Below are positions 1,595 through 17,004 of a stretch of DNA of 17,004 nucleotides, one piece after another. The translations under genes and the position numbers were made by a program. The stretch is from an uncultured Eubacteriales bacterium. GTDB lineage: Bacteria > Bacillota > Clostridia > TANB77 > RGIG9151. Under the pieces are notes generated by a model. That model was given only the letters and a program-made list of their open reading frames with translations. It did not search any database and was not told the DNA's origin. Position 1 is the stretch's first letter. Every line of letters starts with the position of its first letter. The stretch spans positions 1 to 17,004 of the forward strand of contig CAYYWT010000024.1 of NCBI GenBank assembly GCA_964475435.1. The letters run 5' to 3'.

Positions 1595-1736
1595 TAATAG
1601 ATAAAAAGTGGCTATAAAGGACTCAAGAGTTAATAAAGCTGTGTGCTTTATACTAATGATAAACGAGTTTTTTACGTCCCTTTTGTGTTAATATTTTAGA
1701 AAAAATGCCGATTTATTAAAAGAGGTGGGAAGGATT

Positions 1737-3035
1737 ATGAAACTAAAAATTAAAATTTTAATTGGAATTTTGGTAGCGTCAATTACAATTTGCGGGATTT
1801 TTATGTTGGTTTTTGAAAATGCTGAGTTTACCAAAATAGTTATTGCGAGAAATGAAGAACAGAAGAAACTTGATGAAGAAGCTCAGAAGAAGGCGGAGGA
1901 AGAAAAAAGGAAACAAGATGAGTATATTGATTCACAAGCTCCGTATGTAGAATATGACGTAAAAAACCAATATTATCAAGGACTAGCTTTAGTAAAGAAA
2001 GACGGGAAATGGGGATATATAGATAAAAACGGACACGTAAAAATTCCTCTTATTTACGATTCAGCGAATAATTTTATGGGAGAGAAAATCGCGAAGGTTA
2101 AAAAGGACGGATTATGGGGATACATAAATACTGAAGGAAAAGAAGTGATACCGGTTGATTACTATTTTTGCGGAGAAATATCTAATGGTATAATCGCAGT
2201 AGGAAAAGGCGGTAAGTATGGATTTATAGATAGAAACGGAAATAAAGTATGTGATCTTTTATATGATAGAGTTGAACCATTTTCAAGCGAAGGAACAGCG
2301 AAGGTTATATTGGATAGGAAATTTGGATATATAAATGCTTCAGGAGTTGTAATAGTGCCGATAGAAAATCCGTCTAATGAAGAAAATAAAGACTTTACCG
2401 GAACTTGGAATAGAACAAAGACGCATTCATCACTCGGAGCTACGCTCGAGATAAATCATCAAATGGCGACATCGTTTGACTTTAAGTTAACATCTAATTA
2501 TTATTCAATAAGTGATACATTTGAAGGAACAGCAGAAATAACGTCTACCAATACAGCAACGTATGTTTACGGATATGGAACTAATCAAGATAAAATTACG
2601 TTTACAATAGTTGATGACTGGATGGAAATTACGTCAGTACTTGGAGGAAATCTTGATATGAGCTCTGAAAATACAATAATAGGAAAATTCGTGAAAGATT
2701 CGCCTGTATATGATAATGAAGGGTTAGTTGAACAATTATTTGCAAAACAAGATGTTTTAACCAGAATAAGACAAACAATAGGCGAAGAATTATACGAAGA
2801 CGACTTCTTATATGGATTAAGGAACGGATTATATGAAGTTAGTAAATTAAAAGATTCGTCAGTAATAAAAGGAACAGTGTACCATGTTTGGGTTCCGACG
2901 ACTGAAAAAAATTATAAGCTTTTAGTAAATGATATGTATGTATACTTCTATTCAAAGAGTCAAGATATTTACAAAACGGACGATCCGGATAGACAGTCGA
3001 GAGTTCCTAGTGATATTACTTATGACGAAATTTAG
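1737..3035 (+). CDS. membrane-anchored WG (KWG)-repeat protein with an unassigned C-terminal domain
   Basis: ATG at 1737 lies behind AGAGGTGGGAAGG, so the track's GTG at 1725 sits inside the RBS. N-terminal TM helix and Lys/Glu-rich linker. At least four repeats of the D/GxWGYI(D/N)xxGxxVIP type (WG-containing repeat family). The last ~220 aa are beta-rich and unrecognised. Confidence 0.75.
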   Translation: MKLKIKILIGILVASITICGIFMLVFENAEFTKIVIARNEEQKKLDEEAQKKAEEEKRKQDEYIDSQAPYVEYDVKNQYYQGLALVKKDGKWGYIDKNGHVKIPLIYDSANNFMGEKIAKVKKDGLWGYINTEGKEVIPVDYYFCGEISNGIIAVGKGGKYGFIDRNGNKVCDLLYDRVEPFSSEGTAKVILDRKFGYINASGVVIVPIENPSNEENKDFTGTWNRTKTHSSLGATLEINHQMATSFDFKLTSNYYSISDTFEGTAEITSTNTATYVYGYGTNQDKITFTIVDDWMEITSVLGGNLDMSSENTIIGKFVKDSPVYDNEGLVEQLFAKQDVLTRIRQTIGEELYEDDFLYGLRNGLYEVSKLKDSSVIKGTVYHVWVPTTEKNYKLLVNDMYVYFYSKSQDIYKTDDPDRQSRVPSDITYDEI

Positions 3036-3066: not shown

Positions 3067-3074
3067 CCTAAATT
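3067..3074. repeat. left 8-bp direct repeat (CCTAAATT) flanking element copy A
   Basis: Identical to 3246-3253 and directly abuts the element terminus. Confidence 0.7.
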
Positions 3075-3245
3075 GTTACTAGTCAGACTTAATTACTTAT
3101 CAAAAGATAATATCATTAGTTTTCCCGCTCAAACACGTCCTCGGAGAAAATTTTAACTGAAATTAATTATGAAATTTTCTCCGGTACGACTCGCTCTTTA
3201 AACTAATGATATTATCTTTTTAAAACAAATAGACTGAATAGTAAC
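3075..3245 (+). mobile_element. MITE-like palindromic element, copy A (171 bp)
   Basis: Terminal inverted repeats GTTACTAGTCAGAC / reverse complement GTTACTATTCAGTC. Perfect 21-bp internal inverted repeat (3102-3122 with 3199-3219). Central 11-bp hairpin (3143-3153 with 3172-3182). No ORF. A second copy lies at 15869-16042 in reverse orientation. Flanked by an 8-bp direct repeat. Confidence 0.7.
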
Positions 3246-3253
3246 CCTAAATT
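3246..3253. repeat. right 8-bp direct repeat (CCTAAATT) flanking element copy A
   Basis: Identical to 3067-3074. Confidence 0.7.
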
Positions 3254-3274
3254 TAACAAAATTGACTTTTTAGG

Positions 3275-3303
3275 TTGACTTTTGACGAAGATAGATTTAG
3301 AAT
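3275..3303 (+). promoter_or_regulatory. sigma-A type promoter of the aspS leader
   Basis: TTGACT (3275-3280), 17-nt spacer, TAGAAT (3298-3303). Confidence 0.6.
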
Positions 3304-3309
3304 AAGACG

Positions 3310-3534
3310 AAGGCGTTGATAAAGAGGAGTAAAATTAAACTGAGTTTAAGAGAGGAAACAGAGTTGGTGTGATGTTTCTAACTAAAGTAATTTGAAGACA
3401 CTTTTGAGCAGTTTCGTGATGAAGCGAGATCGTATGGTTACGTTATAGACTAAGAGTTAAAATGTGGGTGGTACCACGGAAGAGATACTTTCGTCCCTAG
3501 AGTAGTTTTTACTACTTTAGGGGCTTTTATTTTT
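3310..3534 (+). promoter_or_regulatory. T-box riboswitch leader, Asp specifier (GAC)
   Basis: Specifier-loop context GAA-GAC-A-CTTTTGAGCA (GAC at 3397-3399) parallels the classic GAA-NNN-A...GAGCA layout. AGAGA element in stem I. T-box sequence AAATGTGGGTGGTACCACGG at about 3460-3479. Terminator/antiterminator alternative lies just before aspS. Confidence 0.85.
3495..3534 (+). terminator. T-box leader terminator
   Basis: CCCTAGAGTAG (3495-3505) pairs with CTACTTTAGGG (3512-3522, one G-U), followed by CTTTTATTTTT. Its 5' arm can pair instead with the T-box GGG. Confidence 0.8.
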
Positions 3535-3552: not shown

Positions 3553-5304
3553 ATGAATGAGTACAGAACGCATTATTGCAATGAACTTAGAATGGCTGAT
3601 GTTGGTAAAGAAGTAAGAATAGCCGGGTGGGTACAGACTATAAGAGATTTAGGATCTGTTATTTTCTTGGATATAAGAGATCATTTTGGTATTACTCAGG
3701 CTGTTATAACTGAAGATGAGGAAAATATGAAGATTATTAGAGGGATAAATACGGAAAGTACGGTTTCTATTACCGGTACTGTTCGTGAGCGTTCTAATAA
3801 AAATCCTAATCTTCCGACAGGAGATATTGAAATTGTTCCGTCTAAGATTACTGTATGCGGTAAGTCTAAAAACGTTTTGCCGTTTGAGATTAATATTGAT
3901 CAAGACGTAAGAGAAGATTTAAGACTTGAATATAGATTCCTTGATTTGAGAAATGAGAAAATTCATAATAATATTGTGTTTAGAGCGAAGATTATGAAAA
4001 CTGTTCGTGAAATAATGGACGATATGGGATTTATTGAGGTACAAACGCCTATTTTAACAAGTTCTTCTCCGGAAGGAGCAAGAGACTTTTTAGTTCCAAG
4101 TCGTCTTCATCCGGGAGAGTTTTATGCTTTGCCTCAAGCTCCTCAACAGTTTAAACAACTTTTGATGATGTCAGGCTTTGATAAGTATTATCAAATTGCG
4201 CCATGTTTTAGAGATGAAGATCCTAGAGCTGACAGATCGCCGGGAGAATTTTATCAAGTGGATTTGGAAATGTCATTTGCGACTCAAGAAGATGTGCTTA
4301 AGGCTGTTGAAAATGTTGTACTAAATACGTTTAGAAAGCATACAAATTGGTCAGTTAGCGAAGATGGATTAATTAAAATTCCGTTTAAGGAAGCTATGAA
4401 GAAATATGGTTCAGATAAACCTGATTTAAGGAATCCGCTTATTATCGAGGATGCTACTGAACTATTTAAAGATACTGAATTTGCTGCGTTTAAGGACAAG
4501 ACTGTTAGAATGATTATTGTTCCGAATTGTGCTACTCAAACTAGAAAGTTCTTTGACCAAATGACTGAGTTTGCAGTTAATGAGTGTGGCGCAAAGGGAC
4601 TTGGTTATATTAAAGTTAATGAAGATATGACGTTTAATGGTGGAATAACTAAGTTTGTTACTGAAGAAATGAGAAAAGTATTGTTAGATAAAGTTCATGC
4701 AAATGATGCTGTTTTCTTTATGGCTGATACTGAAGAAGCGATTAATAAAATTGCCGGTGGAGTTAGAATTGAGCTTGGAAAGAGACTTGATTTATTAGAA
4801 AAGAATACTTATAAGTTCTGTTGGATAGTTGATTTCCCTATGTATGAAAAAGATGATGAAGGAAAGATAGAATTTAATCATAATCCTTTCTCGATGCCTC
4901 AAGGCGGACTAGAAGCGTTAAATACGAAAGATCCTTTGGATATTTACGCTTGGCAATATGACTTGGTATGTAATGGCTATGAGCTTGCGTCCGGTGCTGT
5001 TAGAAATCACGATGTAGAAATTATGGAGAGAGCGTTTGAAATTGCGGGTTATACTAAAGAACACGTTGAAGCTAAGTTTGGTGCTTTATATAATGCGTTC
5101 CAATATGGTGCTCCACCTCATGCCGGAGCTGCTCCCGGACTTGACAGAATGGTTATGTTACTTGCTCAAGAGGATAGCATAAGAGAAGTAATTGCTTTCC
5201 CGAAAAATAGTAAAGCTAGAGATTTACTTATGGGTGCACCGTCTAGAGTGTATAAAAATCAGTTGGATGATGTACATATTATGCTAAAACCTATAGAAAA
5301 ATAA
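3553..5304 (+). CDS. aspS: aspartate--tRNA ligase (bacterial type, with insertion domain)
   Basis: 583 aa. N-terminal OB anticodon-binding domain. Class II motifs FRDEDPRADRSPEFYQVD-like (FRDEDPRADRSPGEFYQVDLEMSF) and GLDRMVMLL. RBS GAGAGGAGAG. Asp T-box upstream. Confidence 0.97.
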   Translation: MNEYRTHYCNELRMADVGKEVRIAGWVQTIRDLGSVIFLDIRDHFGITQAVITEDEENMKIIRGINTESTVSITGTVRERSNKNPNLPTGDIEIVPSKITVCGKSKNVLPFEINIDQDVREDLRLEYRFLDLRNEKIHNNIVFRAKIMKTVREIMDDMGFIEVQTPILTSSSPEGARDFLVPSRLHPGEFYALPQAPQQFKQLLMMSGFDKYYQIAPCFRDEDPRADRSPGEFYQVDLEMSFATQEDVLKAVENVVLNTFRKHTNWSVSEDGLIKIPFKEAMKKYGSDKPDLRNPLIIEDATELFKDTEFAAFKDKTVRMIIVPNCATQTRKFFDQMTEFAVNECGAKGLGYIKVNEDMTFNGGITKFVTEEMRKVLLDKVHANDAVFFMADTEEAINKIAGGVRIELGKRLDLLEKNTYKFCWIVDFPMYEKDDEGKIEFNHNPFSMPQGGLEALNTKDPLDIYAWQYDLVCNGYELASGAVRNHDVEIMERAFEIAGYTKEHVEAKFGALYNAFQYGAPPHAGAAPGLDRMVMLLAQEDSIREVIAFPKNSKARDLLMGAPSRVYKNQLDDVHIMLKPIEK

Positions 5305-5332
5305 AAAAGGTGGACTTCAGTCCGCCTTTTTT
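5303..5332. terminator. bidirectional intrinsic terminator between convergent aspS and the minus-strand orphan gene
   Basis: A6, GGTGGAC (5309-5315), loop TTCA, GTCCGCC (5320-5326), T6. Confidence 0.8.
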
Positions 5333-5341
5333 ATTTAAAAA

Positions 5342-9064: not shown

Positions 9065-9517
9065 ATGTCAGCTTTAATCAACAAGATGTTGAATTTAGTC
9101 GGCTTCGATAATGAAGAAGAACTCATGGAAGAGGAAGGTTACAGTTCAAATACATCAAATAGTAATCAAGAAAATGTAAAGGGAAATGCTAATCCATTTA
9201 AGAAAAATTCTAAAGTGGTTAATCTTTCTGATGCGAATCAACTTAAACTAGTTGTTATGCAACCGAATTCATTTGATGATGCTCAAGATGTATGTGATCA
9301 CTTAAAGGAGAAAAAACCGGTAGTAATAAATCTGGAATATGCGGACAAGGATACTGCTAGAAGGCTTATTGACTTTTTAAGCGGTGCAGTTTATGGCATA
9401 GACGGTCATATTGAAAAAGTTTCTACGTCTATATTTTTGTTAGTACCTTATAATGTTGATATTTTAAACACAGCAAAAGAAGATAAAAACAAGGGAACGT
9501 TTTCCTGGATAAAGTAA
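9065..9517 (+). CDS. sepF: cell division protein SepF
   Basis: ATG at 9065 lies after CAGGGAGG, so the track's GTG at 9026 is an over-extension. The conserved SepF core is VVMQPNSFDDAQDVCDHLKEKKPVVINL...ARRLIDFLSGAVYGIDG. Confidence 0.9.
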   Translation: MSALINKMLNLVGFDNEEELMEEEGYSSNTSNSNQENVKGNANPFKKNSKVVNLSDANQLKLVVMQPNSFDDAQDVCDHLKEKKPVVINLEYADKDTARRLIDFLSGAVYGIDGHIEKVSTSIFLLVPYNVDILNTAKEDKNKGTFSWIK

Positions 9518-9530
9518 TATTGGGAGTTAG

Positions 9531-9561
9531 TAAGGTCCGCACATTATGTGTATGGACCTTA
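9531..9561 (+). terminator. hairpin between sepF and divIVA (possible weak terminator or attenuator)
   Basis: TAAGGTCC (9531-9538) pairs with GGACCTTA (9554-9561), with a further short inner stem. The downstream T-tract is poor (TTGTGTTATTG). Confidence 0.3.
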
Positions 9562-9602
9562 TTGTGTTATTGCACATTTATTAGGAAAGGGAGTGGATTG
9601 AT

Positions 9603-10037
9603 ATGCTTACACCACTTGAATTAGAAAAAAACGAGTTTAAAGGCGGAATAGGATATTCTAAGCGTTCGGTGAACGAATTTTATGATAAACTTAGAGCGGA
9701 TTATGAGACTATATATAAAGAAAATATTGAATTAAAGGATAAGATTTCGTTAATGAATGATGCGATTAGCCAGTATAAAGCTATGGAAGAAGTATTGAAA
9801 ACTGCTATGATAAATGCTCAAACTTCTGCTGAAGAAATTAAAAAGAATGCTCAGGAAAAGGCTGAAAATATAATCCAAGAGGCTGAATTTTTGGCTCAAA
9901 AGAATCGTGAATTTTCTAACCAAGAAGTTATTGACGCAAAAGCTGAAGTTGAGAATTTACGAAAAGAGATGCAAGTGTATAAAGCAAAGGTTGAGGCGAT
10001 TTTAAAGTCTCAAATGGAGATGCTAAGTGAGATATAA
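9603..10037 (+). CDS. divIVA: DivIVA-domain protein
   Basis: N-terminal MLTPLELEKNEFKGGIGYSKRSVNEF matches the DivIVA lipid-binding domain signature, followed by a coiled coil. Lies next to sepF. Confidence 0.85.
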   Translation: MLTPLELEKNEFKGGIGYSKRSVNEFYDKLRADYETIYKENIELKDKISLMNDAISQYKAMEEVLKTAMINAQTSAEEIKKNAQEKAENIIQEAEFLAQKNREFSNQEVIDAKAEVENLRKEMQVYKAKVEAILKSQMEMLSEI

Positions 10038-10065
10038 AAAAGGTGGACTAAAGTCCACCTTTTTT
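10036..10065. terminator. bidirectional intrinsic terminator between convergent divIVA and the BI-1 family gene
   Basis: A6, GGTGGAC (10042-10048), loop TAAA, GTCCACC (10053-10059), T6. The T-run overlaps the stop codon of the minus-strand gene. Confidence 0.8.
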
Positions 10066-10771
10066 AGTCTCTGCTTTTTCCGAAAATTCTAAGTAACTCT
10101 AAAAATAAATTGATAAAATCTAAATATAGAGTTAAAGCTCCGATTATTGCGAATTTTGTAGTAAATTCGTTGTCGTTTCCGATTTGATAAGCCATTGATT
10201 TTATTCTTTGGACATCATATGCCGTTAATCCTACGAAGATGACAATGGCAAGTATAGCTATTATAAATGAAAAAGTATTATTTAGTATAAATAGATTTAC
10301 TAAGCTTGCAAGTATTATTCCTACTAATCCCATAAGTAAAATCGAACCGATTTTAGATAAATCCTTCTTTGTAGTATAACCGTATAACGCCATTATTCCA
10401 AACATTCCGGCAGCTATAAAAAATACGCTGGCAATTGATTCGAAGGTATAGGCTAAAAATATGGTTGAAAGGGTTAGACCGTTTACTACTGAATATAGTA
10501 AAAATGAAGTTATTGCAGCACCCTTACTCATTTTATGGACTCTTGCGGTAAGTACGATTACCAGTACAAGTTCAGCAATTAAAAGCCCTATCCAATAAAT
10601 ATTATTGGTAAAAATTTTTTCTAGAAGCCAAGGCGTAGTAGCAGTATAAAACGCAGTGGCTCCGGTTACTAAAAGTCCGCCGAACATCCAACCGAAAATT
10701 TTTGAAAATACGTCTGAAATGCTTTGTTCTTTACTTCCGTACATATCTACAATTACATCAGAATTATTCAT
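10064..10771 (-). CDS. BAX inhibitor-1/YccA family (TMBIM) membrane protein
   Basis: 235 aa with about 7 TM helices. Family-typical C-terminal region (GLTAYDVQRIK ... GALTLYLDFINLFLELLRIFG). Strong RBS AAGGAGGGG. Confidence 0.85.
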   Translation of the reverse strand: MNNSDVIVDMYGSKEQSISDVFSKIFGWMFGGLLVTGATAFYTATTPWLLEKIFTNNIYWIGLLIAELVLVIVLTARVHKMSKGAAITSFLLYSVVNGLTLSTIFLAYTFESIASVFFIAAGMFGIMALYGYTTKKDLSKIGSILLMGLVGIILASLVNLFILNNTFSFIIAILAIVIFVGLTAYDVQRIKSMAYQIGNDNEFTTKFAIIGALTLYLDFINLFLELLRIFGKSRD

Positions 10772-15055: not shown

Positions 15056-15868
15056 TTGATAGACATAATTAATGCGATTATTTTTGGCGTAATTGAAGGG
15101 ATAACTGAATGGTTACCGATAAGTAGTACGGGGCATATGATTTTAGCTGAGGAATTTATTAAGCTAAATGTTACTCCGGAGTTTTGGAAGATGTTTTTAG
15201 TTGTAATACAACTTGGAGCGATACTAGCAGTGGTTTTATTGTATTTTAGGAAATTAAATCCTTTTGCGCTTAGTAAAACTGCTGAAGAAAAGAAACAAAC
15301 GTGGACTTTATGGTTTAAGGTTATCGTTGCATGTTTACCTGCTGCGGTAATCGGAATATTGTTTGAAGATACCATAGACATGTTTTTGGATAATTCGTGG
15401 GTAGTTGCAATTATGCTTATTTTATATGGTATATTCTTTATTTTAATTGAAAATAGAAATAAAAAGCCGGAAGTTACAGAGTTAAAGACCTTAACATATA
15501 AAACTGCCTTTGGAATAGGTTTGTTTCAAGTTTTAGCTTTAATTCCCGGAACTTCCAGGTCCGGCGCTACAATACTTGGAGCTATGTTAATTGGCACATC
15601 AAGAGAAATTGCTGCTGAATTTACATTCTTTTTAGCAATTCCGGTTATGTTCGGAGCTAGTTTTTTAAAACTGCTCAAATTTGGCTTTGCTTTTTCTGGA
15701 GCAGAACTTATGATATTGCTAGTAGGAATGGTAACTGCGTTTATTGTTTCGATAGTTGCAATTAAATTTTTAATGAACTATATAAAGAAAAATGACTTTA
15801 AAGTGTTTGGTTATTATAGGATTGTTTTAGGTATTTTGGTGTTGTTGTATTTTACATTTTGCATATAA
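15056..15868 (+). CDS. uppP: undecaprenyl-diphosphate phosphatase
   Basis: TTG start 7 nt after AGGAGGG. BacA/UppP motifs [20 protein letters not shown] and [10 protein letters not shown]. Polytopic membrane protein. Confidence 0.95.
15861..15868. repeat. left 8-bp direct repeat (GCATATAA) flanking element copy B; contains the uppP stop codon
   Basis: Identical to 16043-16050. TAA at 15866-15868 is the uppP stop. Confidence 0.7.
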
Positions 15869-16042
15869 TTACTAGTCAGACTGATTGTTTCAAAAAAAGA
15901 TAATATCATTAGTTTAAAGAGCGAGTTCCACAGTTGAAAAATTCAAAATAAAAATTTAATCGAATTTTTCAACGAGGACGTGTTTGAGCGGGAAAACTAA
16001 TGATATTATCTTTTTTATAAGTAATTAAATCTGACCAGTAAC
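15869..16042 (-). mobile_element. MITE-like palindromic element, copy B (174 bp, inverted relative to copy A)
   Basis: The reverse complement aligns end to end with 3075-3245 and includes identical 42-nt and 33-nt blocks. Perfect 21-bp internal inverted repeat. Central 12-bp hairpin (15933-15944 with 15962-15973). Flanked by an 8-bp direct repeat. One terminal base is ambiguous (TTACT versus GTTACT). Confidence 0.7.
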
Positions 16043-16050
16043 GCATATAA
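16043..16050. repeat. right 8-bp direct repeat (GCATATAA) flanking element copy B
   Basis: Identical to 15861-15868. Confidence 0.7.
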
Positions 16051-16070: not shown

Positions 16071-16100
16071 TTGACAATTTCCATAAAACAATGGTAAAAT
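16071..16100 (+). promoter_or_regulatory. rpsL (str operon) promoter
   Basis: TTGACA (16071-16076), 18 nt, TGgTAAAAT extended -10 (hexamer 16095-16100). Confidence 0.6.

Positions 16101-16683: not shown

Positions 16684-17004
<321 letters not shown>

Follow-up and report, generated by a model that had tools for sequence, protein, structure and literature searches.

A hairpin that changes in sequence while staying paired probably forms the centre of a small mobile element in uncultured gut Clostridia

Within the window, the whole stretch of 17,004 nt analysed here, two copies of a short folded repeat carry a central hairpin whose sequence differs between the copies while its stem remains perfectly paired. 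We conclude, with a probability of about 0.7, that this hairpin is the centre of a non-coding MITE of ~170 nt that inserted twice, and that its pairing is kept by a strand-symmetric process acting at the level of DNA. By comparison with phage, plasmid and Rfam collections, the element would represent a new family of MITEs whose interiors are modular and palindromic, present in an uncultured lineage of gut Clostridia. We call the element a MITE because it shows the features that define such elements operationally: terminal inverted repeats, 8-bp target-site duplications, a small non-coding size, and filled versus empty versions of orthologous sites.

Organization of the element

From the outside in, the element consists of a terminal inverted repeat, a spacer, a 21-bp middle stem, an asymmetric internal loop and the central hairpin (Table 1). 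The whole-element fold has a predicted energy of -51.3 kcal/mol for copy A (z = -8.6 versus shuffles) and -61.6 kcal/mol for copy B (z = -11.5). A search of the window with the terminal sequence GTTACTAGTCAGAC returned four matches with 0-2 mismatches, which are precisely the four ends of the two elements; one terminus of copy B lacks the first G. The left asymmetric core contains the motif CGCTC, which is repeated in direct orientation in the right core. Between the hairpin and the right core lies a short variable segment (3183-3188), in which 4/6 positions differ between copies A and B; the next base, A3189, is common to both and begins the right core.

Neither the two window copies (171 and 174 nt) nor the 141-nt relative described below has any coding capacity, with stops in all six frames and a longest ORF of 27 aa. 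Since stops fill every frame, a search for further copies by way of spurious ORFs was dropped.

Table 1. Positions of the elements, their parts and their flanking duplications
Feature	Coordinates	Strand	Description
Target-site duplication, copy A left	3067-3074	.	CCTAAATT, 8 bp, abuts the element
Copy A of element	3075-3245	+	171 nt, nested imperfect palindrome
Left terminal inverted repeat, copy A	3075-3088	+	GTTACTAGTCAGAC, 14 nt
Middle stem, 5' arm	3102-3122	+	AAAAGATAATATCATTAGTTT; 21 bp, AT-rich, perfect pairing, same in A and B
Left asymmetric core	3123-3142	+	TCCCGCTCAAACACGTCCTC; unpaired internal loop, same in A and B
Central hairpin, copy A	3143-3182	+	11-bp perfect stem, 18-nt loop
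Variable segment 3' of hairpin	3183-3188	+	GGTACG in A, TGTGGA in B
Right asymmetric core	3189-3199	+	ACTCGCTCTTT; same in A and B
Middle stem, 3' arm	3200-3220	+	followed by T-run
Right terminal inverted repeat, copy A	3232-3245	-	GTTACTATTCAGTC, read on the minus strand
Target-site duplication, copy A right	3246-3253	.	CCTAAATT, 8/8 identical
Target-site duplication, copy B	15861-15868	.	GCATATAA; contains the uppP stop codon
Copy B of element	15869-16042	-	174 nt, inverted relative to copy A
Central hairpin, copy B	15933-15973	-	12-bp perfect stem, 17-nt loop
Target-site duplication, copy B other side	16043-16050	.	GCATATAA, 8/8 identical, abuts the element
L060 element	L060:10423-10563		141 nt, homologous spot upstream of the rpsL promoter

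Alignment of the copies confirmed an initial annotation of this DNA in its statement that the blocks flanking the hairpin, of 42 nt (3102-3143) and 33 nt (3189-3221), are 100% identical between A and B. Conservation is thus unevenly distributed: the interior blocks show 0/75 differences, the termini and spacers (3075-3101 and 3222-3245) show 9/52, and the centre is highly diverged. In a plain MITE, the termini are expected to be the best-conserved part. An interior that is more conserved than the termini is the reverse of a MITE in which only the ends matter, and in these sequences it hints at either a constrained interior or gene conversion. It is possible that the interior is constrained in active copies, for example if a protein binds at the asymmetric cores, or that patchy gene conversion has occurred between the copies. 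The 33-nt block is not intrinsically invariant, since 6/33 positions differ in a decayed copy on contig L026 (see below).

We also considered whether the middle-stem unit had inserted into an older shell. Such a nested origin is unsupported, as no internal duplication flanks the unit.

Separate insertions beside two housekeeping promoters

The 8-bp duplications on either side of a copy match each other and are specific to that copy, indicating that the two copies within this 17-kb window were inserted separately. Empty versions of both sites were present in relatives. An exact-match look-up of RpsL yielded ten related contigs, nine of which (L017-L025) were aligned to the window at 76-90% nucleotide identity. 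Eight of these nine align up to ~15853-15861, the exception being L019, which aligns on the rpsL side alone, and all nine resume at 16049-16050, on the far side of copy B; in L017, ~6 nt lie between the breakpoints. For copy A, the empty site is found in L028, the closest AspRS relative (94% identity), whose alignment to the window runs to 3029 and picks up again at 3258, 14 nt separating the two parts.

The window is a piece of housekeeping chromosome (33% G+C) from uncultured gut-metagenome Clostridia, and its genes include ssb, a WG-repeat gene, T-box/aspS, miaA, hfq, sepF, divIVA, uppP and rpsL. Copy A lies between the stop of the WG-repeat gene (3035) and the T-box/aspS promoter (TTGACT-17-TAGAAT, 3275-3303), ending 30 nt upstream of the aspS -35 box, and copy B is placed between the stop codon of uppP and the promoter of rpsL (16071-16100). 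Both insertions are in AT-rich intergenic DNA, directly 3' of a gene and ~20-30 nt before a strong promoter.

The UppP C-terminus in the window (...YFTFCI*, 15850-15868) is 4-5 residues shorter than those of close relatives (...YFTFSTGLLVA and ...TINVGLMA). Because the uppP stop lies inside the duplicated 8-bp target, this short C-terminus is older than the insertion.

Exact-protein look-ups found the window's species in one fragmented Logan sample only, and the look-up of the aspS product gave no record. The Logan contig L016 breaks inside copy B; copies A and B alone explain the break.

Several other features of these loci were observed. A T-box leader (3307-3501; 108 bits, Rfam) precedes aspS in the window. 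In L028, the aspS promoter and T-box leader are present twice (4527-4819 and 9316-9608), around a 4.5-kb block (radical SAM, NUDIX, PPDK_N), which suggests an insertion that duplicated the leader. The WG-repeat gene (1725-3035) contains internal 48-nt repeats at 1986-2345, matching repeats in its protein. Near-identical bidirectional terminator-like palindromes lie between convergent genes at 5296-5334 and 10029-10066 (AAAAAAGGTGGACTTCAGTCCGCCTTTTTT and AAAAAAGGTGGACTAAAGTCCACCTTTTTT), with a partial third copy at 16812-16832; the pair may represent a small terminator repeat family or convergence.

Pairing of the central hairpins is maintained as their sequence diverges

In copy A, the stem is formed by GGAGAAAATTT (3143-3153) pairing with AAATTTTCTCC (3172-3182), and in copy B by GTTGAAAAATTC (15933-15944) pairing with GAATTTTTCAAC (15962-15973). 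A reverse-complement check showed that the arms are exact in both stems. Comparing the copies, each arm carries three substitutions and one single-base indel, and every one of these changes is mirrored on the opposite arm. The initial annotation had described perfect stems of diverged sequence, and this description holds for the full 11 and 12 bp. RNAalifold reported three pairs with a two-sided change and no broken pair in the central stem, a pairwise comparison of two copies, which is too few for a covariation test of the R-scape type. The loops had been called unrelated, and indeed, in either orientation, they resemble each other no more than shuffled sequences of the same composition do (p = 0.59 and 0.36). 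A loop inversion (spacer flip) between the copies is likewise unsupported, the loops being dissimilar both ways.

We simulated arms drifting independently at the observed rate and recovered a perfect stem after at least three changes in 65 of 1,226,036 trials (~5e-5). When folded as DNA, the central hairpins gave z = -3.6 and -4.8 relative to dinucleotide shuffles. Across the four variable stems, ~41/41 pairs are Watson-Crick and none is G-T, unlike the outer stems, which contain G-T pairs and mismatches. Pairing in the variable hairpins is clearly maintained in an active manner while their sequence diverges. Thus, the earlier proposal of a selected structure rather than neutral decay stands as far as maintained pairing is concerned, and the same pattern is repeated in the L060 element described below; what changes is the setting, since the hairpin belongs to the core of a mobile element.

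Family members and remnants in related genomes

A third insertion was found in contig L060. Its termini are the same as those of the window element, forming a 20-bp perfect inverted repeat GTTACTATTCAGACTTAAAT, and it is flanked by the 8-bp duplication GTTATAGA, with one extra C offsetting the right side. Terminal inverted repeats together with target duplications therefore occur at three independent insertions (A, B and L060). The L060 interior is unrelated to the interiors of A and B. It consists of a three-way junction whose two G+C-rich hairpins (GCAGCTG-ACCT-CAGCTGC and, inverted, CGTCGATG-AGGT-CATCGACG) are inverted paralogues of each other. Three positions per arm differ between the two hairpins, and all are compensated, indicating that the pattern of compensated change recurs independently in the family. 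In each hairpin GTAG adjoins the stem, giving an inverted doublet like that of REP/REPIN sequences. Two more contigs, L061 and L062, break ~30 nt into an element of the L060 type.

Close relatives, retrieved through UppP at 91-95% identity, carry remnants 3' of uppP in at least four different states. In L053, L054, L055 and L064, a 33-nt mini-element with the same termini lies right after the uppP stop (L053:10826-10860, L064:4629-4662). L057 (2964-3021) has a remnant of at least 58 nt after the stop, in which one middle-stem arm is kept. In L026 (7160-7247), a half copy follows the stop, retaining the A-type 3' hairpin arm (GGATATTTTCTCC) and apparently lying in the opposite orientation. The interior type of A and B was retrieved as two full copies and this one half copy only.

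Internal deletion is the expected route of decay for long palindromes, and the remnants after uppP fit such decay of unstable palindromic mobile DNA. The spot 3' of uppP is either an insertion hot spot or the site of an old insertion that was replaced, or decayed differently, in each lineage.

Signals for transcription and RNA function

The initial annotation had offered a selected RNA hairpin or a DNA cruciform. A functional RNA, whether a small RNA, a 3'-UTR stabiliser or a bidirectional terminator insulating the aspS and rpsL promoters, would explain the compensation as selection on RNA structure. The predicted RNA folds of both copies are highly stable, a run of T5-T7 follows the middle stem whichever way the element is read, and both copies lie between a gene end and a promoter, all of which would suit such a role. 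In addition, many MITEs are transcribed and influence mRNA fate (PMC3184786, PMC3733652). However, a search of Rfam with permissive thresholds included gave no family for the elements, yielding noise-level matches and the T-box as the sole match in the window. Scans of both element regions found no promoter-like site within the element that could drive it, and no site passed as an intrinsic terminator (short G+C-rich stem, small loop, T-run). The nearest to a terminator is the AT-rich 21-bp stem, which encloses ~77 nt before T5-T7, and no U-run follows the central hairpin itself. Furthermore, relatives are without the element at both sites, and copies A and B are oppositely oriented relative to their co-directional upstream genes and hence to read-through transcription. 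The variable stems are also free of G-U pairs.

By itself, the absence of G-T from ~41 pairs is a weak argument against RNA-level selection. Taken together with the occurrence of copies in both orientations, it favours a DNA-level, strand-symmetric cause over RNA-only selection, and the lack of a promoter-like site in the element and of an Rfam match leans the same way. Consequently, we regard a functional RNA as unlikely, and the RNA-specific part of the earlier proposal loses ground; the compensation is probably a DNA-level phenomenon rather than the mark of a selected RNA. If a copy were co-transcribed with its upstream gene, the transcript would contain a long hairpin with a U-run after it, whichever the orientation, and a terminator or stabiliser effect of that hairpin is plausible as a by-product.

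Mobilization of the element

Neither the window nor 343 kb of related loci yielded an autonomous element or a transposase with these termini. In a genome collection with one genome per species, the exact 19-mer AAGATAATATCATTAGTTT gave 15 single-strand chance matches in unrelated phyla. JGI metagenomes gave 0 matches to the core-pair pattern, and two unrelated AT-rich palindromes were the only matches to the middle-stem pair pattern. Scans of IMG/VR viral sequences with four patterns returned chance or coding-region matches only, and BLAST searches against plasmids (copy A and the L060 element) and against phages (copy A) returned no match. A REP family in this clade is unsupported, with no other tagged hairpin in the 343 kb of related loci.

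Under the reading that we prefer, a MITE with a paired, variable centre, a DDE-type transposase supplied in trans would recognise the 14-20-bp termini GTTACTAKTCAGAC(TTAA) and cut with an 8-bp stagger; we infer this class of transposase from the 8-bp duplication alone. The interior would be a passenger made of palindromic modules, namely the 21-bp middle stem, the asymmetric internal loop and the short central hairpin. Of these, the central hairpin would be the fast-evolving module, with its arms staying Watson-Crick through a strand-symmetric process at the DNA level. Two causes of the maintained pairing are possible. Selection could act on a foldback (single-stranded DNA, cruciform or RNA), and a compact foldback of single-stranded DNA or a cruciform might be needed during mobilisation or replication. 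Alternatively, in hairpin-templated correction, a change in one arm would be copied onto the partner arm by template switching. The latter corresponds to the scenario that the initial annotation had set against its own reading, in which hairpin-templated repair keeps a variable, filler-like palindrome perfect, and it is one of our two leading mechanisms.

A different arrangement would make the termini a transposon scaffold that accepts exchangeable, perfectly paired hairpin cassettes, an AT-rich hairpin in the window and a REP-like doublet with GTAG tags in L060. Mobilisation would then depend on the hairpin as a structure in single-stranded DNA, proteins would bind at the invariant asymmetric cores, and the system as a whole would be a hybrid between a cut-and-paste one based on terminal inverted repeats and target duplications and a hairpin-recognising one (HUH-type or structure-specific). 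We consider such a hybrid quite improbable.

Transposition of single-stranded DNA by a hairpin-recognising HUH/Y1 transposase, in the style of REP/REPIN or IS200/IS605, would make the hairpin a recognition structure. The hairpins do conserve structure while varying in sequence, CGTC occurs 3 nt upstream of the window hairpins, and the L060 hairpins are GTAG-tagged at the stem and form an inverted doublet like a REPIN (tag definition in PMC3733652). However, the window hairpins, being AT-rich with stems of 11-12 bp and loops of 17-18 nt, are unlike those described for the CGTC or GTAG families. Other GTAG hairpins numbered 0 in the 343 kb of related loci, and none of the loci showed a gene for a Y1 transposase. 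HUH/Y1 elements are not known to generate target duplications or to carry terminal inverted repeats, whereas both are present here at the three independent insertions. We therefore give this explanation very little weight.

The inverted copies might instead be recombination sites, attC-like or served by an invertase, through which a 12.7-kb segment is inverted or exchanged. The copies are inverted and 12.7 kb apart, structure is conserved around a variable centre as in attC, and the gene order of the window differs from that of relatives. Nevertheless, each copy has its own 8-bp duplication on both sides, and an inversion would have swapped these. The duplications at both copies are intact, indicating that the 12.7-kb segment has not been inverted since insertion, and we rejected its inversion. 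The intervening genes are housekeeping genes, no integrase or invertase is encoded in the window, and the termini do not match the attC core GTTRRRY; such sites are a highly improbable explanation. Finally, two unrelated AT-rich hairpins on one scaffold by chance or neutral drift, a reading to which the unalignable loops and the ease with which AT-rich sequence forms weak hairpins might point, can be set aside given the rarity of perfect stems in the drift simulation, the z-scores of the hairpin folds and the repetition of the pattern in L060.

Implications

If the hairpin is the centre of a MITE, an RNA-like covariation signal finds its explanation as part of a mobile element and need not be mis-filed as a riboregulator. 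The analysis would also place on record a previously undescribed MITE family from an uncultured human-gut Clostridia lineage, one that appears to insert repeatedly by the rpsL and aspS promoters and to decay through internal deletion. Should the pairing be due to hairpin-templated correction, the element would be a natural case of apparent compensatory evolution without RNA selection and, if so, a warning for the use of covariation to discover RNAs in genomes rich in repeats.

Comparison with known systems

Template switching can copy one arm of a quasi-palindrome onto the other, generating compensated changes in one step (PMC7202029, PMC8604942). Such quasi-palindrome mutagenesis is a mutational mechanism rather than an element family, and it may have acted in the window element.

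Like the attC site of integrons, the element is an imperfect palindrome in which conserved flanks and unpaired asymmetric bases surround a variable central structure, and the function of attC depends on its fold and not on its sequence. Unlike attC, it is accompanied by no integron integrase or cassette array and has no R/L core, its terminus reading GTTACTA as opposed to GTTRRRY (R''/R', RYYYAAC / GTTRRRY). Because target duplications are present, transposition rather than site-specific recombination is indicated. The likeness to attC would be one of functional analogy only.

REP/REPIN sequences, which are mobilised by RAYT, are also short hairpins of conserved structure and variable stem, often arranged as inverted doublets, and the L060 interior resembles a GTAG doublet (PMC3733652). 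REPs differ from the element in that they have no terminal inverted repeats and no target duplications. In CGTC REP families, stems are 8-9 bp and loops 4-5 nt (PMC3733652). The window element departs from the REP/REPIN pattern of a GTAG or CGTC tag directly abutting a hairpin of 20-40 nt, with CGTC placed 3 nt from the hairpin, the longer stem and loop given above, and both terminal inverted repeats and target-site duplications; no RAYT gene was seen.

The element most resembles bacterial MITEs that have long stable folds. We found no sequence similarity to known elements in phage, plasmid and Rfam collections, and MITEs were compared by description. Chunjie, a MITE of Geobacter, is 178-235 bp long and AT-rich, with 21-bp terminal inverted repeats and 9-bp duplications (PMC3184786). 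Like Chunjie, Nezha of cyanobacteria, Correia/NEMIS and RUP, the window element is small, non-coding and intergenic, has terminal inverted repeats and a target duplication, occurs as filled and empty sites, and is predicted to form a very stable hairpin (PMC3184786). It differs from those MITEs in its 8-bp duplication, in having an interior more conserved than its termini and no parent insertion sequence found, and in that the same termini carry unrelated interiors.

Among these analogues, the nearest is bcr1, a ~155-nt mobile repeat found in the Bacillus cereus group, in which base-pair compensatory changes have been reported to preserve the fold (PMC3184786). Both are mobile repeats of a Firmicute in which compensatory changes maintain a folded structure. 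In contrast to the window element, which is known from its sequence alone, bcr1 is transcribed; it also has a different sequence, makes a 5-bp duplication and forms a two-hairpin cruciform. Compensated stem changes are a known trait of such mobile elements and do not show an RNA gene.
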